Shown here piece after piece: positions 2,376-53,146 of a stretch of DNA of 64,000 nt. The DNA is from a virus: the IMG/VR virus record IMGVR_UViG_3300037261_000012, positions 1 through 64,000 of that record. One strand, written 5' to 3'. The position numbers were made by a program, and so were the translations under genes. Position 1 is the first letter of the stretch, and each line of letters begins with the position of its first letter. Under the pieces are notes generated by a model. The model saw only the letters and a list, made by a program, of their open reading frames with translations, had not been told where the DNA came from and did not search any database.

Positions 2376-4718
2376 ATGAAAATCTACGACTCTCTCAACC
2401 CAACATTTTCCGCAGCCGAAGCACTTGGTGTGGTCACAGTCTCCGCCAACGCCCAAGGTGCCCCTCTTGATCTGGCTCCTGCGACCAGCAATGCCACTCG
2501 TTTGCCGCTGGTTACAGTGCCCAAAAATCTGTATCAGCCTGACCAGAAAAGCTATACCATCACCCCAACAGGAGTACATACCGGGGACACAGTTACCATC
2601 AATGGGCGGGTATTCACGGCCACCGGTAGCACGGCTGACGTGGGCAAGATTGTATTCACTAATAATTTCTCAGTAGCAGATACCGTAACAATAAATGGTG
2701 TGGTTTTCACAGCTATAGATGGTGCCTATGCAACAGGGAAGATTGTCTTCACCGGCAACTTCAGTTTGTGGGATACCATTACCTTGAATGGAAAGGTCTT
2801 TACTGCCATTACTACTGCCGCACCCGCTGTTGGTAAATTGGTATTCACTGGAAATCTGCTTGCTGGAAACACCGTAACAGTAAATGGAAAGGTGTTTACG
2901 GCTGTGGGGATTGCGGCTCCCGCAGTAGGTAAGATTGTATTCACCGGGAACTTCCTGAATGGTGATACGGTTACCTTCAACGGTGTAACTTTTACTTGCC
3001 ATAAAGCAGCCCCATCAGTTGGGAGTATTGCCTTCACTGGGAATATTGCTCCTGGAGAAACAGTAACAGCCAATGGAATAGTATTTACCTGCATGGCATC
3101 AGGTGCAGCCGGTGATCAGTTCAATGTTGGAGCAAGTCTTTCCGTTACGTTGGATAACCTAGTAACTGCCTTGAATGCTCACGTTGGAGCAGCAGTTGAT
3201 TTCGCTACTTGGAGCAAAACTGGAGGTAATGCAGCGGTCACTGGAACGTCTGATACCAATGACGCAACCCAGAATGGTCGTACCTTCAGTTCTACTGCCT
3301 CACCAGCCCCAACTATCACGGCCTTTGCTAATGGTGTGACTGCTGCCAGTGGTGAACTTCAGTTTGACTGGGATACAACTTTATCTCTGTCTTTGGATGC
3401 CTTAGTCACCAAGCTACAGGCTTGCAGTGATGTTCTTATTTCATATGCGACATACACCAAAACAGATACCAATACAGCAGTAACTAGCACTTCTGACACA
3501 AATAACAGTGCTCAGAATGGGTTGGTATTTACTAGCACGCACGCTACTGTGGTGGTGACTGCCCCTGTTGGTGGAGTAAGTGCCCCGGCAGGTGAATTCC
3601 AGTTTGCGATTGACACCACACTTAGTCTGTCGATAGATAATCTGAATACAGCCTTGAATGGGTGTACAGATGTTGCTGTATCTTATGCAACATACAGCAA
3701 GACCGATGGCAATACAGCAGTTACATCCACTTCAGATACAAATAACAAAGTTCATAACGGGGTGGCTTACCCAGGTGGAACAATTGTTCTTGCTAGTAAC
3801 CACAGCACTGTAGTCATTACCCAGCCTTCTGGGGGAACGGCAGCAGCTACAGGTGAATTTGAATTCACTATTGCTGGAAGCCTGTCCCTGTCTTTGGACG
3901 CCCTGGTGATTGTGTGTAATGCTTGTACTGATCCCTTGATTACCTATGCTACATATGACAAGTCTGATACCAATACTTCTCTTAGGAGCATAGCTGATAC
4001 ACATGGTACGGCTTACAATACTCCAACTGTTGTGTTTAGCTCTACACACTCAACTGTGGTGGTGACTCAACCAGTTGGTGGAGTAGATGATACAGATGGA
4101 AGTGCTGCTCAATTTGATGTTAAGGCAACCCTGGCTCTGACTTTGGCGGCTTTAGCAGCAAAATTGACTGCCAGCGTTGTTGCAGCAGTGGCCATCGCTG
4201 ATTACACGGTTACTGATGGAGATACTGCCATAACAGTCACCTTAAATCGCTTGCGCGGGTCTGCCGGTGATGCAATTGTATTAGCAAGTAATCATAGTAC
4301 AGTGGTTGTGACTCAGCCAACTGGAGGTTCAGATACCACTGCATACAACACCACAACCTTCTGCACAGGAGCACCATCTGATGCTGAGACTGCTGCAAAC
4401 CTGAATTCAGCAATAAATACTTGGAAAGCCAATGCAGGGGCGGCATTCCAGCTACATGATGGTAAAGTAGCCATGACAGCCACCAATGTAGCTTCTTCAG
4501 GCGCTGCTGTTACTACTTTTGATCTTCAAGTTAGTACTGATGGGGTTAATTACATCCAGCACCCTGAAGGAAGTAACCCAACTCTATCCTTGAATCAAAC
4601 ACCTGGTGAAACAAAGACCACACCTATGTATACAGCCTACCCATTCGTTCGGGCTAAGTGCCTGACTAAAACAGGAACCAACGCAGAAGCACAAGCGTAT
4701 ATTGCAACAGCCATATAA
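2376..4718 (+). CDS. Virion-type structural protein with six nested repeat domains
   Basis: T/A/G/V-rich; six GKIVFTGN..GDTVT.NG.VFT segments followed by six QF....LSLSLD.L...LNA.....ATY segments; C-terminal LQVSTDGVNY...PFVR. Confidence 0.75.
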   Translation: MKIYDSLNPTFSAAEALGVVTVSANAQGAPLDLAPATSNATRLPLVTVPKNLYQPDQKSYTITPTGVHTGDTVTINGRVFTATGSTADVGKIVFTNNFSVADTVTINGVVFTAIDGAYATGKIVFTGNFSLWDTITLNGKVFTAITTAAPAVGKLVFTGNLLAGNTVTVNGKVFTAVGIAAPAVGKIVFTGNFLNGDTVTFNGVTFTCHKAAPSVGSIAFTGNIAPGETVTANGIVFTCMASGAAGDQFNVGASLSVTLDNLVTALNAHVGAAVDFATWSKTGGNAAVTGTSDTNDATQNGRTFSSTASPAPTITAFANGVTAASGELQFDWDTTLSLSLDALVTKLQACSDVLISYATYTKTDTNTAVTSTSDTNNSAQNGLVFTSTHATVVVTAPVGGVSAPAGEFQFAIDTTLSLSIDNLNTALNGCTDVAVSYATYSKTDGNTAVTSTSDTNNKVHNGVAYPGGTIVLASNHSTVVITQPSGGTAAATGEFEFTIAGSLSLSLDALVIVCNACTDPLITYATYDKSDTNTSLRSIADTHGTAYNTPTVVFSSTHSTVVVTQPVGGVDDTDGSAAQFDVKATLALTLAALAAKLTASVVAAVAIADYTVTDGDTAITVTLNRLRGSAGDAIVLASNHSTVVVTQPTGGSDTTAYNTTTFCTGAPSDAETAANLNSAINTWKANAGAAFQLHDGKVAMTATNVASSGAAVTTFDLQVSTDGVNYIQHPEGSNPTLSLNQTPGETKTTPMYTAYPFVRAKCLTKTGTNAEAQAYIATAI

Positions 4719-12864: not shown

Positions 12865-13668
12865 ATGATTTCATGGATGAAGAAAGGCGCTGAAAGCGTA
12901 GCCGCAGTAAAACAAGATGCAGTAGAGTATGAAGCACGCAAGCTAGAAATAGGAAAGATGTGGCGCTTCTTCCTTCGATGGAAGGGAGACCCCAAGGTAA
13001 AATCAGAATCAGACTGGAAGGCCCAGATAACCTTTGTGGATGGTGACCTATCACCAGAAGGGTTTCTTCTACCGCCAAGGTTCTACGAACATGGTTTGAT
13101 GCTGAATGGACAAGTCTCAAACATTGTTTGCCCTGAAAAGACTAACCCAAGTGGTGGGGAAGACATGAAGTGCCCACTATGTGAGGGTGGAGACCGGCCA
13201 ATGCTGGTGGCAGTGTTCACTATCATTGACCACCGTATGCAATCCAGCAAGGATGGCACCAAGCATTACAAGGACACCAAGAGGTTATTGGTGGTGAAAA
13301 GTAACACGTTCGAGCAGTTGAACATGATGGCGATCAAGCGCGGAGGTCTTGCAGGATGCAAGTTTGATGTCATGCGCGTTGGTGAGAAAGCAGCTAACGT
13401 AGGTGACGTATTCGACTTCTGTGATAAGAAGCCGGTTGCCGAACTCCAGGCTATGTACATGGATGAGGTAGTTGACCCTAAGACTAATGCCAAGTCCATG
13501 GTGACTCGTTTCAAGCCAGCAGACTATGAGAATGAAATCGTGTTCCGCAGTGGCAAGGAACTTCGTGCAGCAGGGTTCGGTAAGCCACAAGTGGGAATGA
13601 CAGGTTTTGCCAACGCCGCAACTAGCGGTGGTGAAGCTAGTACTACTGACTACGCTAAGAACCTGTGA
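12865..13668 (+). CDS. Single-stranded DNA-binding protein (gp32-like)
   Basis: FYEH...CP...CPLCE Zn site; position in the replication block; own promoter. Confidence 0.65.
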   Translation: MISWMKKGAESVAAVKQDAVEYEARKLEIGKMWRFFLRWKGDPKVKSESDWKAQITFVDGDLSPEGFLLPPRFYEHGLMLNGQVSNIVCPEKTNPSGGEDMKCPLCEGGDRPMLVAVFTIIDHRMQSSKDGTKHYKDTKRLLVVKSNTFEQLNMMAIKRGGLAGCKFDVMRVGEKAANVGDVFDFCDKKPVAELQAMYMDEVVDPKTNAKSMVTRFKPADYENEIVFRSGKELRAAGFGKPQVGMTGFANAATSGGEASTTDYAKNL

Positions 13669-14991
13669 GCCAGATAGTCTCAGTCATCCCGGAATTCTCG
13701 GGGGCGTATTCTGTACTCCCCTGGAGTCCTGGGCTGGCTGAGGCTTACCGCTTTAAGGATGCTTTCGGGGAACCAGTTAATATGGCCAGAAGGATGGGAA
13801 ATGCCCTATGGGTTCCAAGGAATAGTTGTCCAGTATCACCACATGATGGACGAGTAGTAAAACCCTACACTGCAATCAATTGCAGTTTTACTCCAGCAAA
13901 TAGTGAGCAAGCCCCGTTGGCGGATATGTCTCTTTCCCTGCTTCGTAGTGGGAGAGATCACATATTTGAAGCACCAACGGGGTGGGGATAAAACCGTTGT
14001 AGGAAGTCTCATTGCAGCTAAGTTAGGGCAACCAACGCTGATCGTCGTGACTAAGAACGACCTTACTGTGGCGTGGAAACAAGCGTTAAACCAAATTCTA
14101 GGAATTCCTCTGAGCATGATAGGGCAAGTCCAGCAAGATATGTGCGATTGGAAGGGCAAGCAGTTCGTGATAGGTATGTTACATTCCCTCATAATTGAGG
14201 ATCGTTACCCGGAGGAAATGTACCGTCACTTCGGTCTGATGATTGTGGATGAAGTGCATTTGGTTGCAGCCGAACATTTCCAGGAAATATGTTGGAAAGT
14301 ACCAGCTAAACATAGAATAGGTTTCAGTGCCACCCCAACTAGGAAGGACGGCAGGGATAGACTACTCAAGGCGCACATCGGAGAAACTCTGGTAAAAGGG
14401 TATCTTGTGCCAATGAAGCCTAAGGTGCTTGTAAAGAAAACTGGCTGGCAGATACCTATGTATAGGGATAGAGAAACAATGGGGTTGGTGAAGATACCTC
14501 ACCAACCTGGTAGGATGATGGGTGTGGTGAAGGCCCAGGCAAATAACCAGAATAGGAACTTGTTAATCCTGGAGTTCGTGCTGGCCACGTTTAAGAACGG
14601 GCGTAGAACTGTTATAATGGCTGATACCTTAGATCATCTTGACAGGTTATTCCAGATATTTACCAGTGGTGGTATCAGTGGAGACAAGATTGGTTTCTAT
14701 GTGGGGCAGATGTCTCAAGCTGATCTGGACTTCAACAAGGAAAAGCCTGTGATATTGGCGACATACCGTATGGTTTCAACAGGTACGAATGTCCCAAAAT
14801 GGGATACCTTAGTGTTGGCTACTCCACGCTCAGATGTTAAACAAATGATAGGTAGGGTACTACGATTTTTGACTGACAAGAAACAACCTGTCATCCTGGA
14901 TTTGCTTGACGATGATAAGTTGTTGCACAATTTTCACCTATCAAGATTACGTCAATACTACGCTGTAGGGGCAGAAATTGTATATGTTTGA
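13665..14991 (+). pseudogene. SF2 (UvsW/XPB-like) DNA helicase interrupted by one extra nucleotide in Walker A
   Basis: ORF1 ends EAPTGWG*; the +1 frame continues KTVVGS...DEVH...SAT...QMIGRVLR. The joined motif is EAPTGWGKT. Confidence 0.85.
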
Positions 14992-23367: not shown

Positions 23368-24180
23368 GTGCCATTAAGTATAGCCCACAAAATAGAACCA
23401 ACCAAAAAAGCAAGAGATTTAGCTAGAAAAGTGCTGGCTGGGGGCGAGCTAAGCAGAAGTTCCTTAGAACGTATCCAAAAGGTACTAACAGATCAAAAAG
23501 AACTAGATTCTCAAGGCTTCCTCCAATGCATGAGGGAAAACAGTAATAAGACTGATGATGAACTCCTGCAAGACCTCCAAACAGTACTAGAGAGTAAGAC
23601 CTCCAGAGAGGGTAGGCCAGTAGGTACGGTAGCCACCCAGAGAATGAACGAGCGTGTGCTCCTGTCTTGGAGACTGCAACAACGTGGCCTTACCTATGAT
23701 CAGATAGGTGAGCAGCTTAAATGTAGTAATGCTCAAGTTGGCACGTACATTTCCCGCGCCAAATCCATCCTCCGTGTAGACCCAATGAAGATCAATCTCC
23801 CGCAACAGATAGGGGAGAGTCTGAACTTCTATGAGGATTTGAAACAGATGGCGCTCTTTATTGCAAGCGGCCAGCAAAGTAGCAAGAAAGACAAACTTAC
23901 TGCCATGAGCGTGGCCTTAGGAGTGGAAAGAGATAAGAACGAGTTCCTTACCAAGGTAGGTGTGTACAGTCCAAGTGTGGTTGATTCATTCAAGAGTCTT
24001 GTTCTACAGCAAGTGACGGTGTTGATGGGTAACACCGAGAAGCCTGTAACACCTGAGAACCAGGTTGATCTGTTCTTTTCAAATGTGGCCGCGCAATTAC
24101 TGGACTGCGCCAGGTCTGACCACCCACCACTGCAATCAATTGCAGAAGACGTGGAGTACGTCGATGCTCCTCCCAAGTAA
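23368..24180 (+). CDS. HTH protein, probable terminase small subunit
   Basis: GLTYDQIGEQLKCS HTH; overlaps the terminase large gene. Confidence 0.6.
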   Translation: MPLSIAHKIEPTKKARDLARKVLAGGELSRSSLERIQKVLTDQKELDSQGFLQCMRENSNKTDDELLQDLQTVLESKTSREGRPVGTVATQRMNERVLLSWRLQQRGLTYDQIGEQLKCSNAQVGTYISRAKSILRVDPMKINLPQQIGESLNFYEDLKQMALFIASGQQSSKKDKLTAMSVALGVERDKNEFLTKVGVYSPSVVDSFKSLVLQQVTVLMGNTEKPVTPENQVDLFFSNVAAQLLDCARSDHPPLQSIAEDVEYVDAPPK

Positions 24181-26119
24181 CGTCCAAGACACGGTGACGC
24201 TGATTCAGCGCAACGTCCATGTGATTGCTGCTGGAGACCCTGAATGGGGTGCAGCGTTCGAGAGAGCAATACCAAATTACCTGTCGAAGAAAGAAGTATT
24301 CGAACTTCCATACCTTATACAACTACGACGTTACCCAGTGGATGTAGATACGTTTGTTCATGGCAACATTTATTTGAACAAACCACGGGGAGAAATCTAC
24401 CCGGCAGTTCTGGAAGAACTAAGTAAGATCAATAACCCTGGTGGTGTACGGGTAGTCAACCCTTATTCAGAGGCAGTCTTTACTGGGGGCATTGGATCAA
24501 CCAAGTCCACTACTGCCTTGTACACAGTGGCGTACCAACTGTATGTCCTAAGCTGCTTTAAGAATCCACACCAGGTGTTTGGGTTGGATACAGCTTCTGA
24601 AATTCTGTTTATTTTTCAGGCTATTGGAGACACGGCAGAGAGTGACTACCAGCGTTTCTTGCATATGATTAAGGCCAGCCCGTACTTCAATAACGTATAC
24701 CCATGGGATAAGCGTATTCAGAGTAAGCTAAAATTCCCAGGTAGAGTGGAGGTCAAGCCCATAGAGTCTGATACTGGCACTATTGGTCAGAACGTCCTTG
24801 GAGGTATGCTGGATGAAGTAAACTGGATGGCTGTAACAACCTTTAGTAAGAAATCTCTTGATGGGGGTATCTACGATCAGGCAAGGACTATTTATAACAG
24901 TATAAGTAGACGGAGAAAGAGCCGGTTCTTAAAACAAGGTAAAGCGCCTGGAATACTGTGTCTAGTGTCATCCAAGAGATACCCAGGGGAATTCACGGAT
25001 GTAAAGATTGTGCAGAGCAAGAACGACCCAAGCATCTACGTGTTTGAAAAGAACGTATGGGATATGAAGCCGCCAGGTACGTTCACTAATGGGTACTTCA
25101 GGCTATTCAAAGGAGACCTGCTGAGGAAGGCCAGAGTTGTCAATGAAGGTGAGAGCCTGGACAGGCACGCTGAGATCATAGCCGATGAGTACCTCCAAGA
25201 GGATGAGGTACAGCTTACGATGTTGGTGCCTAACGACTTCCTTGGGGAATTCAAGGAGGATATGATTGGTTCCCTGAGGGACATCGCTGGCGTGAGTGTA
25301 ACCGCCAGATACCCATTCATTACCAATGGTGAGGCTGTTAATGAGATGTTCCAAGGAGGAGAATCCATACTGAATCTGGAAGAAACAGATATGGAGTCAA
25401 CCACTTTGCAGTTCTTTCCCAGCAAATTTAAGAACAAAGAGTGGCCGCGCTGGGTACATATTGACCTTGGGTTGACTTCTGATAGTGCAGGTGTATGTTG
25501 TGGGTATGTACCAAAGTTTGTGTTCACTGAAGACGGATTATTAATGCCGCAGATCAACCTGGACTTCCTACTGCGGGTGAAGCCACCGCCAAACAAGGAG
25601 ATTCAGTTTTACAAGATAAGAAATCTGCTGGTAAAGTTGAAAGAATCAGGGATTCCTATCCAATATGTGACGTTCGACCTATACCAATCTGCCGATTCTA
25701 TACAATTATTGAGGCATTTGGGTTTTAGCACTGGTAAGATAAGCACTACAACAGGTTTGATGCCGTACATGGTGTGTAAGACTGCCATATACCAGAGAAG
25801 GATAAAAGGTACGCCAAGTAAAAGGTGCCATGGAGAGTTGCTCTCACTAGAAATGTACACAACAGTAGGAAAACATGGTGTGATTGATCATCCCCCAGGG
25901 GGAAATAAGGATTTGGCCGATGCTTTAGCCTGTGTAGTATATGGCCTGACCACCAGGAGAGAAACCTGGCTGACACATGGTGTGCCAATTACACAAGCTG
26001 TGGCTGCATTTAAGGAAATAAGTACAACTGAAGGAGTAAAAGATGGAACAGACCCAGACGCTGATGACGGACAATCAATCAAGCCTTTTGAGCACGCCCA
26101 GAAGACCAGTTTTGCGTGA
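24164..26119 (+). CDS. terL: Terminase large subunit
   Basis: GGIGSTKST Walker A, MLDEV, VSS, nuclease HIDLG..SD, TFD, DH....KDLADA. Confidence 0.9.
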   Translation: MLLPSNVQDTVTLIQRNVHVIAAGDPEWGAAFERAIPNYLSKKEVFELPYLIQLRRYPVDVDTFVHGNIYLNKPRGEIYPAVLEELSKINNPGGVRVVNPYSEAVFTGGIGSTKSTTALYTVAYQLYVLSCFKNPHQVFGLDTASEILFIFQAIGDTAESDYQRFLHMIKASPYFNNVYPWDKRIQSKLKFPGRVEVKPIESDTGTIGQNVLGGMLDEVNWMAVTTFSKKSLDGGIYDQARTIYNSISRRRKSRFLKQGKAPGILCLVSSKRYPGEFTDVKIVQSKNDPSIYVFEKNVWDMKPPGTFTNGYFRLFKGDLLRKARVVNEGESLDRHAEIIADEYLQEDEVQLTMLVPNDFLGEFKEDMIGSLRDIAGVSVTARYPFITNGEAVNEMFQGGESILNLEETDMESTTLQFFPSKFKNKEWPRWVHIDLGLTSDSAGVCCGYVPKFVFTEDGLLMPQINLDFLLRVKPPPNKEIQFYKIRNLLVKLKESGIPIQYVTFDLYQSADSIQLLRHLGFSTGKISTTTGLMPYMVCKTAIYQRRIKGTPSKRCHGELLSLEMYTTVGKHGVIDHPPGGNKDLADALACVVYGLTTRRETWLTHGVPITQAVAAFKEISTTEGVKDGTDPDADDGQSIKPFEHAQKTSFA

Positions 26120-27305
26120 TCAGAGGCCCTTGTATAGTGGGCTTGGCTTTCACCCATTCAATGTGGTTGAAGCGGCCAAGGCACGCATACGCTGGCTGGT
26201 GCGCCGTTTCGATGATGTGATCGTGTCGTTCTCTGGTGGAAAAGACAGCTTGGTGTGTCTTGAGTTAGTTGACCAGGTATACAAGGAACTCGGTATACAT
26301 AAAAAGGTGAAGTTCAAATTCATGGATGAGGAGCTTGTGTGCGACAGCATCATTGATTTTCTTCAGAAGCAGTATGAGTGCGGGCGCTTCGAGGGCCAGT
26401 ACTACGCACTACAGATGTACGTGGGATTCTTCGTCATGGGTAGGCATGAGAAGTTCCTGTCCTGGGACACCAAGAGGAAGTGGCATAGGCAACCGCCCCC
26501 CTATGCGATAATGACCATGGGGCATGACACTTCTATTCACAATGAGAACACGATAAGTAAGCTTATGCATCCAGATACTAGTAGAAAAATCTGTGAGATA
26601 GTCGGTGTGCGGGCGCAGGAAAGCATGAAGCGTAAGCAAGCTATAAGTCGTGGGGGTCTTACCATAGGAGGACAACCTAACTACCTGTCATGTGAGGGTA
26701 TGGATCATATATGGAGCGCCAAACCAATATTCGACTGGTCTGAGTTAGATGTTTTCAAATTCTTCAGGGATTACAATATAGAATACTGCAACTGCTATGA
26801 TGCTCAAGCATGGACTAAAGCCCCCTTGCGCGTGGCAAGTGCCCTACACGAAAGAGCAGCCGGGCAGTTCTTCAAGATGAAGGAGATAGAGCCGCTGTTC
26901 TATGAACAACTTCGAAGTCTTTATCCAGAGATTGAAACACACTTCCGCTATTGGAAGGAAGTTGATCCATACACTACTATGTATCGCTACCCCAGGACTT
27001 TCGAAGGCATAAGACAGTACATAAGAGAACAGTTGGATGAATCCCACCGGGATACAGCATTGAAGTTTGTGAACATTGCTGAGGGGCGTCGCACTAAGAG
27101 AATGAAGCTTGATCCTACCTCTGTACTTGGAGACATGCCTGTGCTACAAGTATTTAGAGAAGTAATTGGCGGCAAATTTGTGAAAGGCGCAGCCTTCAGG
27201 TGTAACGTCAGTCAGGCCGATGTGGATTATGAAGAAGGGCGGGGCGGCCCAAACTTACCACTGCAATCAATTGCAGAACCTACGGTGGACTTTGGAGGTG
27301 CATGA
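26043..27305 (+). CDS. PAPS-reductase-like PP-loop protein (IbrA/YbdN-like)
   Basis: VSFSGGKDS, DEE, VGVRAQES..R, PIFDWS..DV, LRVAS. Confidence 0.85.
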   Translation: MEQTQTLMTDNQSSLLSTPRRPVLRDQRPLYSGLGFHPFNVVEAAKARIRWLVRRFDDVIVSFSGGKDSLVCLELVDQVYKELGIHKKVKFKFMDEELVCDSIIDFLQKQYECGRFEGQYYALQMYVGFFVMGRHEKFLSWDTKRKWHRQPPPYAIMTMGHDTSIHNENTISKLMHPDTSRKICEIVGVRAQESMKRKQAISRGGLTIGGQPNYLSCEGMDHIWSAKPIFDWSELDVFKFFRDYNIEYCNCYDAQAWTKAPLRVASALHERAAGQFFKMKEIEPLFYEQLRSLYPEIETHFRYWKEVDPYTTMYRYPRTFEGIRQYIREQLDESHRDTALKFVNIAEGRRTKRMKLDPTSVLGDMPVLQVFREVIGGKFVKGAAFRCNVSQADVDYEEGRGGPNLPLQSIAEPTVDFGGA

Positions 27306-28519
27306 TGGATAAAAATCTTTTAGGTATGTTGGTTGGGAAAAAACCCAGTGTAGTACAAAAAGGTGCCCCATATGGAAATATGAACTGGAAAGGAGGTAAT
27401 GGGGTTACTAGGGACTTCAGCACTGGAGATAAGGGTAAATCTACATTACCGTTGGTTGGTAAATCTTTAGCACTCAGAGGTAGTGAGTATGATTGGAAGA
27501 CTGGATCACAGAGAACGGATGCTGATTGGCATTCCACTAATAAAGAAGAAATACAAAGTAAGAATGATGCTCTTGTATCAGACTTATCCAAGGCAGGGTT
27601 TACTAAGGTAGGTGAGGAAACTAAACTAGGGGGACAATTGTGGAGGTCAGCAGACGGACATACTGAGGTAAGTACTAGGTTTATTACTTCCTTACCTAGT
27701 GCGGCTGGGGGACAAACTACATATGGAGCTATTGCAAGTGTGTATGTTGGTGGGGCTAAACCTCCAAAAGACCCTGAAATGAAAGGTGAAGGTGAGCCAA
27801 GAAAGTACAGTACTGACGAAACTCCAAGAGGAGATGAGAACCAGTATTTCTCAGCATGGATGGACAAGAAAACCAGTGAAAACTCCGACTTAACTCCTGC
27901 TCAGCGTGATGCTTCATTGAATTACACCACGGCTTACTTAGATATAAATCCATTTCTAAGAGGCACTGGAATACCAGAAGGGCATGATGGGCATAAATAC
28001 CCATTATCTGCTGAGGAGCGGGATACTACTATAAAAACACTTGATGGTATGATGCAACCTCTTGGAAAAGATGTAGTGTTGGGTAGAGGTGTTGGGCCTG
28101 AGCCTGCAAGAGATTTGGTGCAAGCATTTAAGGATGGGACATTGATAGGTAGAACCTTTGAGGATAAAGCCTATCTAAGCACTACTTATAACACCTCCCA
28201 AGGTCTTGGGTTCTTTGCTACTAAAGTGCCTTATAAAGATGGAAAGGAGGTTATTGTTACTATGAAAATACATGCTGACCGTGAAGTTAAAGGACTTTTT
28301 ATGCCTGGGTCTAATGATCTTACTGGAGAAGATATGGAAGTAGTTCTTGCCCGTAATACTCCTGTACATATCACGGGTGCTTCTCTGAAAAATGGAGTGT
28401 TAGAGTTGCAAGGACATGCTGGTGATTACATAAGTAAGAAAGCTGAAAACACTTATATAGCTTGGGGTGATCCTATGTATAAGGAGAAAAATCATGATCA
28501 AATCAGTAAAGAAGGTTGA
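27302..28519 (+). CDS. ADP-ribosyltransferase (VIP2/Alt-like, R-S-E class)
   Basis: YT..Y..INPFLR, VLGRGV, KAYLSTT, EDMEVVLARNT. Confidence 0.8.
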   Translation: MMDKNLLGMLVGKKPSVVQKGAPYGNMNWKGGNGVTRDFSTGDKGKSTLPLVGKSLALRGSEYDWKTGSQRTDADWHSTNKEEIQSKNDALVSDLSKAGFTKVGEETKLGGQLWRSADGHTEVSTRFITSLPSAAGGQTTYGAIASVYVGGAKPPKDPEMKGEGEPRKYSTDETPRGDENQYFSAWMDKKTSENSDLTPAQRDASLNYTTAYLDINPFLRGTGIPEGHDGHKYPLSAEERDTTIKTLDGMMQPLGKDVVLGRGVGPEPARDLVQAFKDGTLIGRTFEDKAYLSTTYNTSQGLGFFATKVPYKDGKEVIVTMKIHADREVKGLFMPGSNDLTGEDMEVVLARNTPVHITGASLKNGVLELQGHAGDYISKKAENTYIAWGDPMYKEKNHDQISKEG

Positions 28520-28620
28520 GGAAGCCCAACCTATGGGAGGAATCCAGTCTAAGGTTCCATCTGAGCAGTACCGACAAAATTGGGAACGCATCTTCGGTAA
28601 GAAACAACAGGAGAAGAAAG

Positions 28621-29196
28621 ATGTCAAGCACGTTCAATGATCCTGCCATACTAGCTGATTGGAAGGACAATGGCAGGTGGCCAGCCATCCATGGAAAAAT
28701 AGCATACGCCGCTAGTGAGTTCATGAAATCAAGTAGAATACTGGACTTATGTTGTTCTTTTGGTCTTCTTGGTGAGCGCCTGCACAAGCATCACCCGCTA
28801 CATCCATTCGTAGTCGGTGTAGATTGTGATGTTAAGGCCATGAGAGCAGGTAAAGAAGCAGGTATATGTGTGCCTATGTTTAGTGTGCGGATAACCCGTG
28901 AGACAGTACAAGATTTGTTTCTCATCATTGACACCCACAAGATTACAGGAATAGTGGCCAGGAGAGCATTTCCTGAGTTATTCAGTGATGACCATGAGTT
29001 TGGACGAGAGTTTGCAATCAATTGCAGAGCACATGGCATTACCGAGATTCTTCTGGAGGGAAGGGTAGAGAGTAAGAGGAGCAGTAACAGCTTGTGCGGG
29101 GTAGATTTGGAAGTCCAACTCCTGGCTGGCCTGTACTACCAGACAGCAGGTTATGATAAGTGCGCCTATCTACAACCAGTTAAAGCAAGTAGCTAG
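28621..29196 (+). CDS. SAM-dependent methyltransferase-like protein
   Basis: ILDLCCSFG motif I, VVGVD. Confidence 0.65.
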   Translation: MSSTFNDPAILADWKDNGRWPAIHGKIAYAASEFMKSSRILDLCCSFGLLGERLHKHHPLHPFVVGVDCDVKAMRAGKEAGICVPMFSVRITRETVQDLFLIIDTHKITGIVARRAFPELFSDDHEFGREFAINCRAHGITEILLEGRVESKRSSNSLCGVDLEVQLLAGLYYQTAGYDKCAYLQPVKASS

Positions 29197-29256
29197 AAAT
29201 AGCTTGACAAATCAATAACTTGTGTTATACTTGAGTATAACTGAGGAGTGGAATGC

Positions 29257-29832
29257 ATGGGTATGGGAGCGTATAACGGCTGGTCTGGGTTAATCAGAAC
29301 TGAGCGTGGAAATTTGCAGTACAACATGATCAGGAGTGGCAAGTACCCAATGACCGGAAAGTGTGAGTTGTGTGGACACGACAAAGGGTTGACCGTACAC
29401 GCAGAAGAATATGGGAGTACCTGGGAAGCTTTTGTAGCTAGCAGTCATGAGCTATGTCCGGTGTGCCATGGGCTTATCCACATGAGATGGAAACTACCAA
29501 ACAGGTGGAAGCGTCACAAGCAACGGTTGTTGGCAGGTCAATACCAGGAAGTGATCAGGCTCCCAAGCTTAGGTGCGTTCTTTGGAATATGCCGAAATAT
29601 CCGAGACTTGCCATTCATAGAAGACTGCAAAACAGGGATAGAGTGGGTGGATGGCATCACTATGGAAGGCTGGAAGGACAAGCCTCCTAAGGTAGCGTTG
29701 ATAATAGACAAGGAAGGGGTATTCAGGCCCGACCCAAAGGTATATACTAACGTCAGTTCCCTGCACGGAGTGCGCTGGGATCACGAAACAAAACAAGCAT
29801 ATGACTTTGCATATGGAGAGCCGCCAAAGTGA
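29257..29832 (+). CDS. HNH-like Zn-binding protein
   Basis: CELCG...HAEEY...LCPVCHGLIH. Confidence 0.55.
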   Translation: MGMGAYNGWSGLIRTERGNLQYNMIRSGKYPMTGKCELCGHDKGLTVHAEEYGSTWEAFVASSHELCPVCHGLIHMRWKLPNRWKRHKQRLLAGQYQEVIRLPSLGAFFGICRNIRDLPFIEDCKTGIEWVDGITMEGWKDKPPKVALIIDKEGVFRPDPKVYTNVSSLHGVRWDHETKQAYDFAYGEPPK

Positions 29833-30500
29833 CTGAAACAACACAGGCCATACCTGGTGTGATGGGAAATATAGTATTTGGCACAGAAGTTTCTACCCAA
29901 GAAACTAACGCTCCAAGAAGTATAACTCAACCATCACTGCAATCAATTGCAGACCCCTCCGGCCATCCTGTAAATAACATCCAATGGCTGGATGTAAATG
30001 ATCTAACAGCTAACGATTACAATCCAAACCATGTGATGGAGCCAGAGATGCAGTTGCTGGCGTTGTCATTACTGAAGCAAAAGTGGATACAACCTATCCT
30101 GGTGTGGCCAGACCCAAAGACCGGAAAGTACGTGATTATTGACGGCTATCACCGTACCATGGTGGTCAGATCAAATAAGCAAGTGTGGGCTATGACTAAT
30201 GGGCGCGTACCTGTAGTAATTATGGAAATGACTGTTCCAGACAGGATGTTACTGACCATACGAATAAACCGTGCTAAGGGCAATCACGCTGCCATCAGGA
30301 TGCACGCTATAGTTCATTCTCTCATCAATGATTGGAATTACAGTCCTGACCTTGTAGCTACCGAAATTGGCGCGGACATTAGTGAGATCAACACGCTTGT
30401 TGCGGAGAACGTGTTTGAGATCAAGAAAGTTGACGAGATGAATTACAGCAAATCCTGGTTCCCCAAATCAGTGGTAGAACATGGAATGGAGTTCGAATGA
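29829..30500 (+). CDS. ParB/Srx N-terminal domain protein (IbrB/YbdM-like)
   Basis: ANDYNPN, QPILV, IIDGYHR, TIRINRAKG.H. Confidence 0.88.
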   Translation: MTETTQAIPGVMGNIVFGTEVSTQETNAPRSITQPSLQSIADPSGHPVNNIQWLDVNDLTANDYNPNHVMEPEMQLLALSLLKQKWIQPILVWPDPKTGKYVIIDGYHRTMVVRSNKQVWAMTNGRVPVVIMEMTVPDRMLLTIRINRAKGNHAAIRMHAIVHSLINDWNYSPDLVATEIGADISEINTLVAENVFEIKKVDEMNYSKSWFPKSVVEHGMEFE

Positions 30501-31075
30501 GCAAGATCGGAGTACAGCAAGAATCTTCAGATCAGGCATTTGGGCAAGACCCAATGACCTTCCCTGTAAAATACATGAGTCCTACTGCTGTGCTTCCGTA
30601 CTTCAGAAATGCCAAGAAGCATGACCGCCGCCAAATAACCTTGCTGGCAAAAGCCATACGTACAAGTGGATTTGACCAACCAATCGTAGTGGACAAAGAC
30701 CTTGTAATTATCAAAGGACATGCTCGCCGCCTTGCAGCATTAGAACTAAAGATGGATTTAGTACCGGTGGTAGTACGTGATGACCTGTCCCCAGAGGAGT
30801 GCGTGGCCAGCCGCATAGCTGATAATCAAGTAGCTACCATGACTAGTGTGGATAAAGCCATGGAGCAGCAGGAGATTCTGGATTACGTTGGTGCAGGAGG
30901 GCATGATGCGGCGATATTTTTCGATTTCATGGACACAAGTAATTCTTATGGAAAGCAAGCTAAAGTTCTTCCAGGGGCTGCTACACCTGCTCCAGCCCCA
31001 AAACCTAATCCTGTTGCTGGGAACTTAGAAACTTGTCCTAAGTGCGGCCATACATTCATGGAAATACCTAAATAA
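30497..31075 (+). CDS. ParB/Srx N-terminal domain protein
   Basis: PYFRNAKKH, GFDQPIVVD, IIKGHARRLAA, RIADN; C-terminal CPKCGH. Confidence 0.88.
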   Translation: MSKIGVQQESSDQAFGQDPMTFPVKYMSPTAVLPYFRNAKKHDRRQITLLAKAIRTSGFDQPIVVDKDLVIIKGHARRLAALELKMDLVPVVVRDDLSPEECVASRIADNQVATMTSVDKAMEQQEILDYVGAGGHDAAIFFDFMDTSNSYGKQAKVLPGAATPAPAPKPNPVAGNLETCPKCGHTFMEIPK

Positions 31076-31290
31076 TGGATTCAGTGTACCTTGCTGGTAG
31101 GACGTTGAAGGTGCTCATGCATGATGCGTGGGTGCCAACTTTATGGACTCATCTGTGGAGTGGAGATCGTTTCCGCATGTATGAGGGTGATAAGTTAATA
31201 GCCAGTGGGGTGGCAGAAAGCAATGCAACTGATTGCAAGCCAGCAGGAAATATGAGTTTCATAGCCACACTTGATAAGGTGCCAATTTGA
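31075..31290 (+). CDS. Hypothetical protein
   Basis: Translationally coupled ORF. Confidence 0.5.
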   Translation: MDSVYLAGRTLKVLMHDAWVPTLWTHLWSGDRFRMYEGDKLIASGVAESNATDCKPAGNMSFIATLDKVPI

Positions 31291-31748
31291 ACATACTGAT
31301 GAAAGACCCGCTGACGTTGATTCCTTTTCCAGCCAACAGCAAGGCACACACGGAAGAACAAATAACGGCGCTTGCTGAGACCATTAAGCACTTCAAGTTC
31401 GACCAGCCGGTAGTGGTGGATCAAAATCTCGTTATTATTAAGGGGCATGGGCGCACGCTTGCGGCGATAAAGCTTGGCATGAAATTCATCCCGGTGATAG
31501 TCAGCAACGTATCTGACGCGGAGGCCCGTCTTAATAGGGTCTTGGATAACCACCTGGTAAGCCAGGAGTACGATCCTCATAGCTTGCGAGAAGACTTGCT
31601 GGATTTGAAATCTACCGGGCACTTGTCCTTGAGCCTGTTTGACGAGAAGATGATACCTGAGGTGTATACAGCGGTAAGTCGGGTGGAAGCCACGTTATTC
31701 AGCTTGGTGACCAAACATAAGTGCTCCCAATGTACCTATAAATGGTGA
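31287..31748 (+). CDS. ParB/Srx N-terminal domain protein (paralogue of 30497)
   Basis: PFPANSKAH, FDQPVVVD, IIKGHGRTLAA, RVLDN; C-terminal CSQC. Confidence 0.88.
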   Translation: MNILMKDPLTLIPFPANSKAHTEEQITALAETIKHFKFDQPVVVDQNLVIIKGHGRTLAAIKLGMKFIPVIVSNVSDAEARLNRVLDNHLVSQEYDPHSLREDLLDLKSTGHLSLSLFDEKMIPEVYTAVSRVEATLFSLVTKHKCSQCTYKW

Positions 31749-32605
31749 TTAAAATTCCTATTTGGGGAACATTTTCAGTTGAAGGCTCGCGCAAGGATAG
31801 GATTATGAGCACATTAATTTCGGTTGACACTGTGATCAGGAAGAACACTGGGTTTGACACCTGCCTGGGCATAAGTGAGTGCAATCAATTGCAGGAACCA
31901 GAGTTGCTGGTGATCGAACCATTCTTCACTAACTTCAAGGCCGCCAACAACGATCAACTAGGGGCTATATTCAAGGTAGCTGCTGAATGTGCGGTTGCCG
32001 GAAAACCTATGCCGCGCACTATTGTTGTAAATATAAGCTACAGTAAGATAAATGCAGTAACTATCAAAGGATACCTGCTGGATGTAGTGGAGCATTTTAA
32101 GGGTATGGGCTACAAGAACTTTACAAGCGTACATATCCCGTTTGAATCCTATGGCTGCCCGATGGTTGGTTCGGTGTTGAGCCTTATTTTTTGTAAAGAT
32201 CGTATTGCATACCTGCCAGTGGCAAGGACTGTACTACCAGGAGCGGCCTTTGAAGGACTGCTTTATCACGCTATGGCAGGAAGAATGAGGGGGAGCGTCT
32301 ATGCCGGAGCCGCCGACGTAAGCGGGTTCCTCAACAGTAACAGGTCATTCCTACCTGATCTAAGTGTCTGGGCAGAGGAGGGTTTGCGCGCCGAATATCG
32401 TAAGGACAACAGTAGTGTAAGTACTGTCTTTAAGGATGAGCATGTACATGAGCTATTTGGAGTAAGCTCGTACATGCACCCACTTGATTTGCACTTGTGT
32501 ACACCGCCGGTTATTCTTGCTACTTTTCTGAACAACTTAAAGCAATTGAATGACCTTACAGACACCATGAAAAAGGATGCTGCGGAAACAAATAGTCAAA
32601 AATAG
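31742..32605 (+). CDS. Hypothetical protein, possibly a degenerate C5 DNA methyltransferase fold
   Basis: F..MGY...SYGCPM weakly recalls C5-MTase motif VIII; no PC catalytic motif seen. Confidence 0.4.
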   Translation: MVIKIPIWGTFSVEGSRKDRIMSTLISVDTVIRKNTGFDTCLGISECNQLQEPELLVIEPFFTNFKAANNDQLGAIFKVAAECAVAGKPMPRTIVVNISYSKINAVTIKGYLLDVVEHFKGMGYKNFTSVHIPFESYGCPMVGSVLSLIFCKDRIAYLPVARTVLPGAAFEGLLYHAMAGRMRGSVYAGAADVSGFLNSNRSFLPDLSVWAEEGLRAEYRKDNSSVSTVFKDEHVHELFGVSSYMHPLDLHLCTPPVILATFLNNLKQLNDLTDTMKKDAAETNSQK

Positions 32606-32676
32606 TTCAGAAAGTGCTTGACAGACTGGCCTGATTGTGGGAAACTTCAATCATACCGAACGCAATGGAGTGCGAG

Positions 32677-32811
32677 ATGAAAGCAGAATACGAAGATTAC
32701 CTGCTGGAGATTCAAGGCCAAGAGCCTATGAGTTTTCAAGAGTATTGCCGCTGGGTGGTGATGTCAGTGGAATTCGAAATCCGATCCAAACTTGCAAGGA
32801 GTGCAAAATGA
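32677..32811 (+). CDS. Small early protein (44 aa)
   Basis: After promoter 32618 and GGAG RBS; MKAEYEDYLLEIQ... Confidence 0.5.
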   Translation: MKAEYEDYLLEIQGQEPMSFQEYCRWVVMSVEFEIRSKLARSAK

Positions 32812-33080
32812 GCTTCAATGTTGTAATCCAGTTTAGCAAGCTAAGTCAGGAGGATAAAGAGACCTGCCGCGCAATGTTGGCTGGTGCCGTTCGTCACTAC
32901 GCTGACACCCATTATGAAAAGGGTTGGGACATCGTGGTGGAGTGCTTTAGCGATCAGGACATCATCGCCGTAATCGGTGGTGCTCAGACAGTCAACGGTG
33001 CCCTTCGCAAGATGTACCAAGATCAGATCAAACCCCACAACGAAGCACGGCTCAGGCACGAAGCAGCCGCAGGAGTCTGA
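32808..33080 (+). CDS. Hypothetical early protein
   Basis: AAGGAG RBS; HYEKGWDIVVEC. Confidence 0.65.
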   Translation: MSFNVVIQFSKLSQEDKETCRAMLAGAVRHYADTHYEKGWDIVVECFSDQDIIAVIGGAQTVNGALRKMYQDQIKPHNEARLRHEAAAGV

Positions 33081-48286: not shown

Positions 48287-48358
48287 TTTCGAAAGTGCTT
48301 GACAGACTCTCGGAATTGTGGGAAAATCCAGTATTGATAGTCCAATGGAGTGGAAAGC

Positions 48359-50335
48359 ATGTTCCTGACTAAAGACTCACAAGAGATTCAGAACCTTTCT
48401 GATGAAGACCTTCGCATACTCCTTGGTGGTAAAGGAGCAGGGCTGGTGCAAATGATTAATGCCGGTGTTAATGTTCCTCCCTTCGTAGTTTTACCTACTA
48501 CTGTGTGGAAGGAGTACAGCAAAGCACCAAAAACAACTATGAAGGCTATATCTCAGGAGATTAACTCAATACTTACTAATTTCAAGAAGCAAATTGGGTA
48601 TATCCCTTTAGTATCTATTAGGTCTGGTGCGCGTGTAAGCTGCCCCGGAATGTTAGACACGATCTTGAATGTTGGGCTTGATATTACAACCCAGGACTTC
48701 TGGATGAGCAAGCTTGGCAAAGAGTGCTACGAGAACAGCCTGCACCGGTTGGTTACCATGTATGGTTCAGTGGTGAAAGGAATCGACAGGAAGGAATTGG
48801 AGCAATGCACTCCTGCTGCTGCGTTCGAACTCTATCAGCGCCGGTCTGGTGAGGTGTTCCCATTCGTGAAGTACCAGATCATCGGAGCCATAGAAGCCGT
48901 GCTAAAAAGCTGGAACAACGAGCGCGCAAAGTATTACCGCAAGATGCACAATATTCCTGAAACATGGGGTACAGCCGTGGTAATACAAGCCATGGTGTTC
49001 GGCAATCTTAATGATCAATCAGGTACGGGAGTTCTTTTTACACGCAATCCTGATAGTGGTGCCAATGCTATCACAGGGGAATTCTTGATAAACGCTCAAG
49101 GTGAGGACGTGGTTGCTGGGATCAGGACTCCGATGCCGTTGCACAAGCTGGCTGAGTGGAACAAGCTGGTGTCTGACGAACTTGCTTCAGTTGTGGAGAA
49201 ACTGGAGAAATCCAAGCAGGATGTTCAAGACGTGGAATTTACGATCCAGGATGGCAAGCTGTTCATTCTGCAAACTAGGAATGCCAAGCGGAGTGCCAAA
49301 GCAGCCATCAGGATTGCCCTGGACATGGTGAAAGAGGGCTTGATTTCAGCAAATGTGGCCGTAGGTCGCGTGACTGCCAGAGATATGGATTTGGTGCAAA
49401 TGAATGTGATTAGCCCGAAATTCAAGAATGTACCTGCCTTTACTGGAATAGGAGCGTGCAGTGGAGTAGTTACTGGGGTGCCAGTGTTCAGCACGGCAGA
49501 TGCGGTAGCCAGCAAGGTTCCGTGTATCCTCATTACCCAAGAAACCACGCCGGAAGACATCGCAGGAATGGATGCAGCGGTTGGAATACTGACTATGACC
49601 GGTGGAACAACCAGCCACGCTGCTGTTGTTGCGCGGGGGATGAACAAGCCATGTGTAGTGGGTTTGGGCGTTGGCCTTAGTGAATTAGCCAATTATGCAT
49701 GGGAGAAGGTTAGCATCTGCGGTGAGACAGGACGAGTGTGGTTCATGGAAGTTCCTGTTACTAATGGCAGCCAGAATGGAGACCTTGCTGAGTTCAAGGC
49801 CATGGTGATTGCTGCCCTTGGAATCATTCCGGTGGTTACTGATCCTACCACTCAGTGCAAGGAAATGATGCTTGATTTGAGCAATGAAACAAACATAGCC
49901 AGAGCACAATTGCTGGTGATGAAAGCGGCTGGTATGTGCGAGATGCTGTACGTGGACTTCCGCAAGGAGAACTTGCCGGAAGCCAGCCAGTCCTTCAACC
50001 GGATGTACGGGTCAACTACATTAGAGCAATCTATAGTGGATGCTGTCTGCAATCAATTGCAGTCCGTAGCCCCCTCTGGGTGGGAAGTCCACATCAAGGT
50101 AATGGTGAGCAATGGGATCAAAACAACCATGCCAATGATCGGAACTATGGACGACATCAAGAGTCTGATTCTTGCTAAAGGTAGTGTGGTGGTTGGCGGG
50201 GAAGACCTGGATGCGGCCACTAAGAAAGTGCTTGAGTGGAAAAAGGCTGAAGGGTTGGAGTTAATGTCAGTTGGAGGGTACATGCCTGGAGTCAAATCTG
50301 TCCTCTCAATTGAGCAGGCAATGCAGATAGAGTAA
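48359..50335 (+). CDS. Pyruvate phosphate dikinase-like protein lacking the PEP/pyruvate-binding barrel
   Basis: LGGKGAGL, VSIRSGA..SCPGMLDTILN, QAMVFGN, NAQGEDVVAGIRTP, DVEFT..LQTR, phospho-His GGTTSHAAVVARG; unrelated C-terminus of about 190 aa. Confidence 0.9.
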   Translation: MFLTKDSQEIQNLSDEDLRILLGGKGAGLVQMINAGVNVPPFVVLPTTVWKEYSKAPKTTMKAISQEINSILTNFKKQIGYIPLVSIRSGARVSCPGMLDTILNVGLDITTQDFWMSKLGKECYENSLHRLVTMYGSVVKGIDRKELEQCTPAAAFELYQRRSGEVFPFVKYQIIGAIEAVLKSWNNERAKYYRKMHNIPETWGTAVVIQAMVFGNLNDQSGTGVLFTRNPDSGANAITGEFLINAQGEDVVAGIRTPMPLHKLAEWNKLVSDELASVVEKLEKSKQDVQDVEFTIQDGKLFILQTRNAKRSAKAAIRIALDMVKEGLISANVAVGRVTARDMDLVQMNVISPKFKNVPAFTGIGACSGVVTGVPVFSTADAVASKVPCILITQETTPEDIAGMDAAVGILTMTGGTTSHAAVVARGMNKPCVVGLGVGLSELANYAWEKVSICGETGRVWFMEVPVTNGSQNGDLAEFKAMVIAALGIIPVVTDPTTQCKEMMLDLSNETNIARAQLLVMKAAGMCEMLYVDFRKENLPEASQSFNRMYGSTTLEQSIVDAVCNQLQSVAPSGWEVHIKVMVSNGIKTTMPMIGTMDDIKSLILAKGSVVVGGEDLDAATKKVLEWKKAEGLELMSVGGYMPGVKSVLSIEQAMQIE

Positions 50336-51769: not shown

Positions 51770-52063
51770 ATGAACATCGGGCCAAGAGTCCTGGAGGTGA
51801 TGCAGCACTATGGCATCAGCAAGGACGAGCTTGAGCAGATGGTGCAGAGAGCAGCTATTACCAGTCAGGAAGGTGGCAACAGGAAATTCCATACCTGGAT
51901 ATTCAACGTCCATGATGGTGCTGTGGTAAGCATGAGACCAGTTGAAAAGACCGTGGTAGGAAAGGACAAAGGTAATGGAGTCCAGCACGAAGACTGCGAT
52001 AAATGTGATGGATTCGGGTGTAAAGATTGCGGGTGGTGGGGACACATAATTAGGTACATTTAG
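51770..52063 (+). CDS. Hypothetical protein with C-terminal CxxCxGxG
   Basis: CDKCDGFGCKDCGWWG. Confidence 0.6.
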   Translation: MNIGPRVLEVMQHYGISKDELEQMVQRAAITSQEGGNRKFHTWIFNVHDGAVVSMRPVEKTVVGKDKGNGVQHEDCDKCDGFGCKDCGWWGHIIRYI

Positions 52064-52379: not shown

Positions 52380-52456
52380 AGCGGGATAGCGCAGCATGGT
52401 AGAGCGCCAGGCTCATAACCTGGAGGTCGATGGTTCGAATCCATCTCCCGCTACCA
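52380..52456 (+). tRNA. tRNA-Met(CAT), initiator-like acceptor stem
   Basis: AGCGGGA/TCCCGCT stem, CTCATAA loop, GGTTCGAAT, ACCA. Confidence 0.92.
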
Positions 52457-52463
52457 GATTTAT

Positions 52464-52541: not shown

Positions 52542-52577
52542 AGATATTGTTGTAAGCCTTCTTATTTCGTCGTTCGA

Positions 52578-52920: not shown

Positions 52921-52940
52921 TGGTGATGCCTCGAAAGAGG

Positions 52941-53141: not shown

Positions 53142-53146
53142 AGTAT

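Follow-up and report, generated by a model that had tools for sequence, protein, structure and literature searches.

An enlarged, lineage-specific copy of the phage IbrA/IbrB-type module behind a large terminase gene, independent of a dispersed 14-mer lattice

Introduction

Annotated IbrA/IbrB pairs of phages and prophages (PHROG 2302 together with PHROG 2159) combine a PP-loop protein resembling 3'-phosphoadenosine-5'-phosphosulfate (PAPS) reductase with a ParB-like partner, and Escherichia coli carries such pairs as IbrA/IbrB and YbdN/YbdM. Here we describe a gene cluster of this type directly behind the large terminase gene (terL) of a phage genome. The window that we analysed is the first 64 kb (positions 1 to 64,000) of the 94,883-bp viral record IMGVR_UViG_3300037261_000012 (G000), which has a 127-bp terminal repeat. 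The cluster is an enlarged, lineage-specific copy of a widespread phage module, and it is independent of a 14-mer near-palindrome that is dispersed over the same genome.

Other described systems offer partial likenesses. DndB and DndC of DNA phosphorothioation, according to the accessible part of the source, are a ParB-superfamily protein and a PAPS-reductase-superfamily PP-loop enzyme acting on DNA, DndB being the ParB-type partner of the DNA-modifying enzyme (PMC10853773). The available text on 7-deazaguanine DNA modification by DpdA/DpdB likewise describes a ParB-like ATPase that helps a DNA-modifying enzyme (PMC12839542). Frequent fusion to methyltransferases and binding of CTP, ATP or GTP are reported for phage ParB-fold proteins (10.1101/2025.10.10.680097). 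KorB of plasmid RK2 is, in an excerpted account, a CTP clamp sliding up to 1.5 kb (PMC11790492), and with its OB operators it offers the likeness of a dispersed palindrome on a replicon that encodes ParB-family proteins.

A sequence-only reading of the stretch, made before any database search, had placed behind terL a PAPS-reductase-like PP-loop protein with an SGGKDS motif, an IbrB-like ParB-N protein, two further ParB-N paralogues, an S-adenosylmethionine (SAM)-binding protein, an HNH-like protein and a possible degenerate C5-methyltransferase. It had taken these for a DNA-modification machine, likened to DndC and possibly loaded at the palindrome. We compared the cluster with protein families, predicted folds and related loci, and weighed what the module may do.

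Results

The core of the module

The kinship of the cluster with the IbrA/IbrB type rests on two genes of one operon, which match PHROG 2302 and PHROG 2159. They are accompanied by the gene of an HNH-fold protein and by two further ParB_N genes. Matches are given with their E-values; ORF stands for open reading frame, HTH for helix-turn-helix and AF2 for AlphaFold2.

26163 to 27305, + strand: IbrA-like PP-loop ATP pyrophosphatase of the PAPS-reductase superfamily (ORF opens at 26043; Pfam PAPS_reduct, PF01507, 9.7e-10; phrog_2302, 4.2e-80)
29248 to 29832, + strand: X194, HNH-fold zinc protein and third conserved component of the module (family motif, AF2 fold match)
29829 to 30500, + strand: IbrB-type ParB/Srx protein with a DGxHR motif and a C-terminal HTH-like segment (phrog_2159, 4.4e-58)
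30497 to 31075, + strand: ParB2, ParB_N protein of a type that other phages fuse to DNA methyltransferases (phrog_930, 3e-37)
31287 to 31748, + strand: ParB3, second ParB_N protein of the ParB2 type (PF02195, 1.9e-7; phrog_930, 5.4e-33)

The IbrA-like protein, whose 380-amino-acid form is database entry P0001, matches phrog_2302 over residues 40-383. SGGKDS, D55, E57, R105, R109, R150, E153, S154, R157, D191 and D196 are among the residues that do not vary in 43 IbrA-like sequences. No cysteine is invariant in these 43 sequences, the best column having Cys in 33 of them, and the C-terminal catalytic Cys of PAPS/APS reductase (CysH) thus has no conserved counterpart. The CysH models TIGR00434 (score 19.5 against a cut-off of 165.1) and TIGR02057 (16 against 254.2) matched the P-loop only, as did the DndC equivalog model TIGR03183 (20.8 bits against 290.4), and a PADLOC scan gave only P-loop-level matches, to BrxP and DndC. 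Nor did cysteine desulfurase, DndD or DndE turn up among the cluster proteins in a Pfam scan. This protein is therefore unlikely to insert sulfur in the manner of Dnd or to reduce PAPS, because the family lacks a conserved Cys and the DndC and CysH models score far below their cut-offs. The DndC analogy of the sequence-only reading is correspondingly weak.

When the IbrA family profile was compared with solved structures the best match was CysD, an adenylyl-transferase (3.5e-5), and the fold suggests adenylation of some oxygen; single-sequence searches of solved structures with IbrA, TerL and IbrB gave nothing useful. Unlike known IbrA/IbrB pairs, the present one has no DUF3440 (PF11922) match at E <= 0.01 in Pfam, and this domain is carried by only two of 120 listed IbrA homologues (P0093 and P0105). 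Some homologues (P0086, P0088 and P0089) are fused to a SET domain (PF00856), a fold that usually marks protein lysine methyltransferases. These fusions hint that methyl transfer is part of the module's chemistry, or that its target is a protein.

The IbrB-type protein is 51% identical to the annotated IbrB of Rhizobium phage L338C. Invariants of its family include NPN, DGxHR and TxRxNRxKGxH, and the family profile finds ParB and Noc among solved chains (1.3e-6). ParB2 and ParB3 match the N-termini of phage ParB_N-methyltransferase fusions (PHROG 498 and PHROG 5475), ParB2 in particular those of phrog_498 'DNA methyltransferase' (1e-24) and of PADLOC MTase_II (2.8e-14). In contrast to these fusions, the genes are separate here: the ParB3 gene is followed by that of the methyltransferase-fold protein Y287, which is of C5 type and has no conserved catalytic Cys, whereas the related record G004 has a ParB_N-Methyltransf_23 fusion. 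The three ParB proteins score 24.3, 25.5 and 31.5 bits with PF02195 (ParB_N, cut-off 26.3) and 23.2-41.9 with TIGR00180 (cut-off 58.45), and PHROG ParB families match them strongly. They differ from canonical ParB in that Pfam found neither HTH_ParB (PF17762) nor the C-terminal dimerisation domain in any of the three, in a variant P-motif (DGYHR, GHARR and GHGRT, as read from the sequences), and in having no cognate site that travels with them, as described below. The two ParB2-type paralogues do end in CxxC, as had been pointed out (CPKC and CSQC), but this feature is not conserved in their families.

Across 51 sequences of the X194 family, R17, C39, C42, H51, Y55, C70, C73, H74 and H78 are invariant, and the resulting pattern CxxC..H..CxxCHxxxH contains the zinc-binding CxxC pairs and the catalytic-type His of HNH proteins. 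The AF2 model has a mean predicted local distance difference test score (pLDDT) of 77.7, high over approximately residues 10-140. In fold it comes closest to the Gme HNH nickase 4h9d_B (Z 5.4, rmsd 3.4 Å, 81 residues aligned), followed at some distance by SciA of phage T5 (Z 3.3). Foldseek returned no row at E <= 0.001, its top rows being HNH nucleases; the family profile weakly matched the HNH region of IscB among solved chains (E 0.095), and Atlas look-alikes at 0.92-0.93 were named HNH. There was no Pfam (HNH included) or PHROG match. X194 is probably HNH-like, as the motif and, to a moderate degree, the fold indicate.

Additions to the core in this genome

Compared with known IbrA/IbrB pairs, the cluster also holds the HNH-fold protein, extra ParB_N genes, two methyltransferase-fold proteins and an ADP-ribosyltransferase. 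The ADP-ribosyltransferase, the second ParB_N protein and the C5-methyltransferase-fold protein without catalytic Cys are this genome's own additions to the core, which in other loci often includes a class-I methyltransferase-like protein of the MT226 kind.

27302 to 28519, + strand: ADP-ribosyltransferase, ART (PF03496, 1.5e-8, 34.7 bits against a cut-off of 23.4, residues 185-363; phrog_3895, 1.7e-9)
28621 to 29196, + strand: MT226, class-I SAM methyltransferase-like protein (ORF opens at 28516; phrog_11826, 1.5e-22)
31802 to 32605, + strand: Y287, C5 DNA-methyltransferase fold with degenerate motifs (ORF opens at 31742; homologues start at M21)

The ART gene is translationally coupled between the IbrA-like and the methyltransferase-like genes. 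The N-terminal 180 residues of its product gave no family match, and no homologue was found in any of 80 related module loci; ART is an insertion specific to this phage genome. MT226 is 28% identical (E 6e-18) to a 'methyltransferase' encoded after the PAPS-reductase gene in Bacillus phage 031MP004, and its Atlas form, which starts at residue 36, has class-I methyltransferases as look-alikes.

Y287 gave a confident AF2 model (pLDDT 91.5, predicted template modelling score 0.87). Foldseek matched it to M.HhaI (E 1.7e-5), and in VIA it shared the two-domain C5-methyltransferase fold of M.HhaI 2uyc_A (Z 14.9, rmsd 3.5 Å, 232 of 327 residues aligned), the top 50 VIA rows all being C5 methyltransferases. 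The family is small, with nine proteins found by word search and 37 representatives by profile. Only G109, W209, E217 and P254 are invariant columns in 40 sequences; none of these is a Cys, and there was no match to Pfam PF00145 (DNA_methylase). The sole Cys, in YGCPMVG, varies between C, S and V among homologues. Neither a conserved motif IV catalytic Cys nor the glycine-rich SAM loop of motif I was found, with columns assigned to what we take to be the C5-methyltransferase motifs. Judging from these sequences, catalysis of the classical C5-methyltransferase kind is unlikely.

The genes listed in the sequence-only reading were thus largely borne out: the PP-loop and IbrB-like proteins by their PHROG families, the SAM-binding protein as MT226, the HNH-like protein as X194, and the possible degenerate C5-methyltransferase at the level of the fold. 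The inventory was incomplete, having omitted the ART gene and a 71-amino-acid ORF (31075-31290).

The module in other phages

Related loci were fetched with the IbrA family profile, which yielded 80 viral loci; a single IbrA protein as query gave no relative. By our estimate about 1600 stretches of the viral collection hold one of the short patterns used in the search, only some of these being confirmed relatives (209 of the 580 checked), and tblastn found an IbrA-like enzyme in 216 cultured-phage records. A phmmer search of the cluster proteins against the ORFs of the 80 loci found IbrA in 78, the IbrB type in 75, X194 in 52 and the ParB2/3 type in 51, with MT226 (17) and Y287 (one, the locus L124) as rarer partners. 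The recurring gene orders are ParB-IbrA-IbrB-(MT)-X194 and ParB-IbrA-X194-IbrB, often with overlapping ORFs, and X194 homologues frequently lie between, or overlap, IbrA and IbrB. L124 is the nearest relative of the cluster, reading TerS?-TerL-ParB-IbrA-X194-IbrB-ParB-ParB-Y287. Similar annotated sets, with the enzyme beside ParB-like genes, occur in Bacillus phage 031MP004, Mycobacterium phage Pipefish and Rhizobium phage L338C.

The module often adjoins terminase genes. For terminases we scanned those ORFs of 400-800 amino acids that lie no more than 3 kb from the module, which are 72 of the 127 ORFs of this size in the loci. The scan found terL genes near the module in 34 loci, and these genes represent at least five Pfam types (Terminase_6N/6C, Terminase_3, GpA, TerL_ATPase/nuclease and the T7 type). 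Together with four loci that have the phage's own terL type, the module lies less than 3 kb from terL in 38 of 78 loci, and in 21 of the 35 with at least 3 kb on both sides. These counts are a lower bound, the terL of the present phage itself having no Pfam match.

24164 to 26119, + strand: terL, large terminase subunit (ORF opens at 24065; the start at 24164 is a guess)

This terL, for which searches of Pfam, PHROG, NCBIfam and PDB sequences gave no match, is 42-47% identical over 553-635 amino acids to its counterparts in four relatives (G001, G003, G004 and G005). The G005 place, at 47% identity over 565 amino acids, corresponds to the 'terminase large subunit' coding sequence of phage DLP5 (NC_042082.1). 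The ORF at 24065-26119 is by this identity terL, and the cluster does stand directly after it, as the sequence-only reading had it. All four relatives do without IbrA, ART, MT226, X194 and Y287; the region behind terL that holds the cluster is therefore variable and accessory, and relatives can dispense with the cluster.

The closest cultured kin of the phage are the Stenotrophomonas phages DLP3, DLP5 and Summit (55% identity in one conserved protein), followed in the same comparison by Vibrio, Rhizobium and Rhodobacter phages. A megablast search with 24000-33000 found no match among cultured phages.

Independence of the module and the 14-mer lattice

The dispersed motif is TGCAAT-CA-ATTGCA, a near-palindrome, often flanked by C/G, with 7-bp arms around an asymmetric CA centre. 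G000 holds 30 exact copies, 29 of them in one orientation.

27262 to 27275, + strand: motif copy TGCAATCAATTGCA, with further cluster copies at 29013, 29938 and 31880 (not specific to the cluster)

Window copies lie at 2347, 8801, 12023, 13871, 16827, 22099, 24131, 27262, 29013, 29938, 31880, 35662, 41230, 41884, 45170, 50048, 52133, 54670, 57215, 59075 and 61946. Twenty of the 30 are intragenic, in all three frames (LQSIA, CNQLQ and AINC), and ten are intergenic or at gene edges; those of the cluster sit inside genes and read LQSIA, AINC, LQSIA and CNQLQ. Three copies follow a promoter-like site at a distance of 40-66 bp. Along the genome the copies are more regularly spaced than expected by chance (coefficient of variation, CV, 0.56, reached by 0.08% of random placements).

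The palindrome had been described as densest in the cluster, with copies at 27261, 29012, 29937, 31223 and 31879. Four of these are real, and the one at 31223 is degenerate and in the opposite orientation. The four exact copies compare with 2.07 expected (Poisson P = 0.16), and 99% of random placements of 30 sites hold a four-site group tighter than the tightest seen here, so the claimed density does not exceed chance.

Searching viral contigs with a 16-mer, we found eight other records with 13-50 motif copies each. Counting the 14-mer with any centre, there are 39 copies in G001, 28 in G003, 50 in G004, 27 in G005, 27 in G008, 13 in G009, 23 in G010 and five in G006; G002 has 22, with only the CA/TG form counted. 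G001, G003, G004 and G005 are true relatives by many proteins, their G+C together with that of G000 ranging from 0.47 to 0.62. G006 and G009 are related by one conserved protein (45% and 60% identity), to which the incomplete records G002, G008 and G010 have no match. A strand-specific role of the motif as a general rule, suggested by the 29:1 bias in G000, is ruled out by mixed orientations in G001, G004 and G005 and by the symmetric CG centre used in G003 and G008.

No PAPS_reduct match turned up in G001-G006 or G008-G010, whereas G000 and 14 of 14 control genomes gave one; G007 has one PAPS_reduct gene but a single motif copy. Conversely, the motif has no copy at 79 of the 80 module loci (1.06 Mb searched), L124 alone carrying it, with the module plus five copies in 21 kb. 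The co-occurrence of cluster and motif thus fails in both directions, and no cognate palindromic site travels with the ParB proteins. Because lattice-bearing records do without PAPS_reduct and 79 of 80 module loci do without the motif, the module and the lattice are independent, and the lattice is common to the whole phage group.

ParB_N was found in five of the ten motif-bearing records (G000, G001, G003, G004 and G005) and not in G002, G006, G008, G009 or G010. The carriers have different families: phrog_26387 in G001, G003 and G005, phrog_620 and phrog_5475 in G004, and phrog_2159 and phrog_930 in G000. Since G009, a relative rated 100% complete, keeps 13 motif copies without a ParB_N match, a ParB-N reader is not required for the lattice, and something other than the cluster reads it. 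The same point separates this genome from the KorB system: here the lattice persists in a complete relative without a ParB_N gene, and the cluster's ParB proteins lack an HTH_ParB match.

The phrog_26387 protein, a ParB_N protein of about 285 amino acids, is encoded directly upstream of terL (G001 12959-13819, - strand; G003 2299-3174, + strand; G005 69945-70799, + strand), and its gene contains a 14-mer copy at the same protein place in all three (..LQSIA.. or ..LQLIA..). In G000 and G004 this position is taken by an unrelated HTH protein. A candidate motif reader, the protein at 51770-52063, which is the positional counterpart of a 'transcriptional repressor' of DLP3, had no Pfam or PHROG match.

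Surrounding features

Nearly all long ORFs of the window are on the + strand, and 23.4-32.6 kb is a single + strand gene run in which stop/start codon overlaps join most genes. The run contains these further features.

23368 to 24180, + strand: HTH protein of 270 amino acids in the small-terminase position (weak Sigma70_r4_2 match, 7.2e-4; overlaps terL, directly upstream)
29190 to 29232, + strand: candidate sigma-70-like promoter preceding the cluster's second half (belongs to repeat family D10; promoter-pattern match at 29204)
31075 to 31290, + strand: ORF of 71 amino acids (holds the degenerate, reverse-oriented motif copy at 31223)

The HTH protein, whose gene holds the motif copy at 24131, may be the small terminase subunit; only G004 has a weak homologue (27% over 111 amino acids). 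The 71-amino-acid ORF had no Pfam or PHROG family match and no homologue in the 80 related loci.

About 12 copies of one strong sigma-70-like promoter, sharing a conserved upstream block, lie at 32599-57689. They read TTGACA, then a 17-nt spacer with TGTGG, then GAAACT or TAAATT. The series begins at 32599, exactly at the end of the cluster, and the 14-mer stands 40-66 bp downstream of some copies. Repeat family D14 (52417-54511) resembles tRNA T-arms, which suggests a tRNA gene cluster.

Discussion

The present cluster belongs to a module that recurs across phages, and we consider the chances about even that this module acts on phage DNA as an accessory system of modification or anti-restriction whose genes are expressed along with those for packaging. 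A DNA target is favoured because the partners have an HNH nickase fold, a C5 DNA-methyltransferase fold and the ParB_N type linked to DNA methyltransferases, and joint action is favoured because the core genes travel together in 80 viral loci. Any such modification or anti-restriction would most likely be non-sulfur chemistry. In this scheme the ParB-type proteins would bind DNA and a nucleotide, IbrA would adenylate a target oxygen that a non-sulfur nucleophile would then replace, and the HNH-fold and methyltransferase-fold proteins would hold, nick or flip DNA. Of the DNA-modification machine proposed from the sequence, the part that survives is therefore a set of DNA-directed enzymes acting jointly, which the context supports; loading at the palindrome and the analogy with DndC do not. 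The likeness to DpdA/DpdB is one of arrangement, with homology unclaimed, as the catalytic partner there is a transglycosylase and not a PP-loop enzyme.

Several observations weigh against an action on DNA by modification. Phage DLP5 is temperate and persists as a phagemid, and only four of 36 restriction enzymes cut its DNA (PMC5834331); DLP3 DNA resisted 15 of 15 restriction enzymes, according to the accessible part of its description (PMC7326821). The DNA of both is restriction-resistant and presumably modified, yet they are without the module, as is G005, which has the gene coordinates of DLP5. Since DLP5-type DNA is resistant without the module, DNA modification in this phage group has another source. 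The only label of the family with a reported experimental basis, 'co-activator of prophage gene expression', which appears in record annotation, is regulatory. In addition, the SET-domain fusions of some IbrA homologues mean that the target may be a protein, the HTH-like segment of the IbrB-type protein is a reading of sequence only, the X194 fold match is modest, and the literature that we searched held no functional study of the IbrA/IbrB-type module and gave no function for it.

Two kinds of protein outside the cluster are conserved in all four relatives compared: a pyruvate-phosphate-dikinase (PPDK)-like protein at 48350-50335 of the window (PPDK_N plus PEP-utilizers mobile domain) and two dual-specificity-phosphatase-like proteins at 55011-55511 and 56831-57616. 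Because the DNA of the cultured relatives is restriction-resistant, these proteins are candidates for the pathway by which the group actually modifies DNA or nucleotides.

A role of the module as regulator of late or prophage gene expression seems rather unlikely to us. The 'co-activator' annotation in phage records and in a paper table speaks for it, as does the position within 3 kb of terL in about half of the loci, late activators of many phages lying near large terminase genes. ParB-family KorB, moreover, is a CTP-gated transcriptional repressor in the excerpted account (PMC11790492). A regulator would not explain the invariant catalytic residues of the PP-loop enzyme or the nuclease-fold and methyltransferase-fold partners, and the module here stands behind terL rather than before the late operon. 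It is also missing from relatives that have the same core genes, which would be odd for an essential late activator.

The module might instead be a packaging accessory, in which a ParB-type nuclease and the HNH protein assist the terminase in cutting or preparing DNA ends. HNH proteins that stand next to terminases are known to help packaging, and the module adjoins terL genes of at least five Pfam types. The same variety counts the other way, as the terminases found with the module come from unrelated families that differ in their mode of packaging; the module is absent from relatives whose terL is orthologous, and neither the PP-loop enzyme nor the methyltransferase has an obvious cutting role. 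We regard this explanation as improbable.

We likewise give only a small chance to a module that makes or consumes a nucleotide-like small molecule for counter-defence or metabolism, with IbrA as a CysD-like adenylyl-transferase and IbrB as an Srx/SerK-like kinase. Among solved structures the IbrA profile matches CysD best, IbrB matches SerK weakly (0.0042), the IbrA family lacks a conserved Cys, and the cluster is located in an accessory island. The CysD/SerK-type matches, however, are all local and far below family cut-offs, and the partner proteins point to DNA by their HNH fold, their C5 DNA-methyltransferase fold and a ParB_N type that is linked with DNA methyltransferases.

That the cluster's ParB-N proteins load at the palindrome and spread modification about 1.5 kb each way is very hard to maintain: for it speak the real, evenly spaced lattice, the ParB_N genes in half of the motif-bearing records and the presence of both module and motif in L124, but the lattice is kept without PAPS_reduct in all eight other lattice-bearing records and without ParB_N in the complete relative G009, 79 of 80 loci keep the module but have no motif copy, the five ParB_N carriers differ in the PHROG families of these genes, and the motif is not enriched in the cluster.

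Returning to the action of the module on phage DNA, a specific and unlikely form of it would be a new non-sulfur covalent DNA modification, in which IbrA would adenylate a base carbonyl or backbone oxygen, the ParB/Srx protein would provide a nucleotide-gated hold on DNA, the HNH-fold protein would give access and, in this lineage, the pseudo-enzyme derived from a C5-methyltransferase would flip the base. If this were true, the module would be for DNA what enzymes such as lysidine synthase are for tRNA, and it would act during genome packaging.

In conclusion, our analysis does away with an attractive but mistaken connection of the module with the palindrome, and the lattice needs a separate explanation. 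IbrA/IbrB-type cassettes are present in hundreds of phage genomes, where they are still annotated as sulfur-metabolism genes or 'co-activators'. A family without a conserved Cys, with an HNH-fold protein as regular third member, adjoining many terminase types and dispensable in close kin, offers a sharper starting point for work at the bench.

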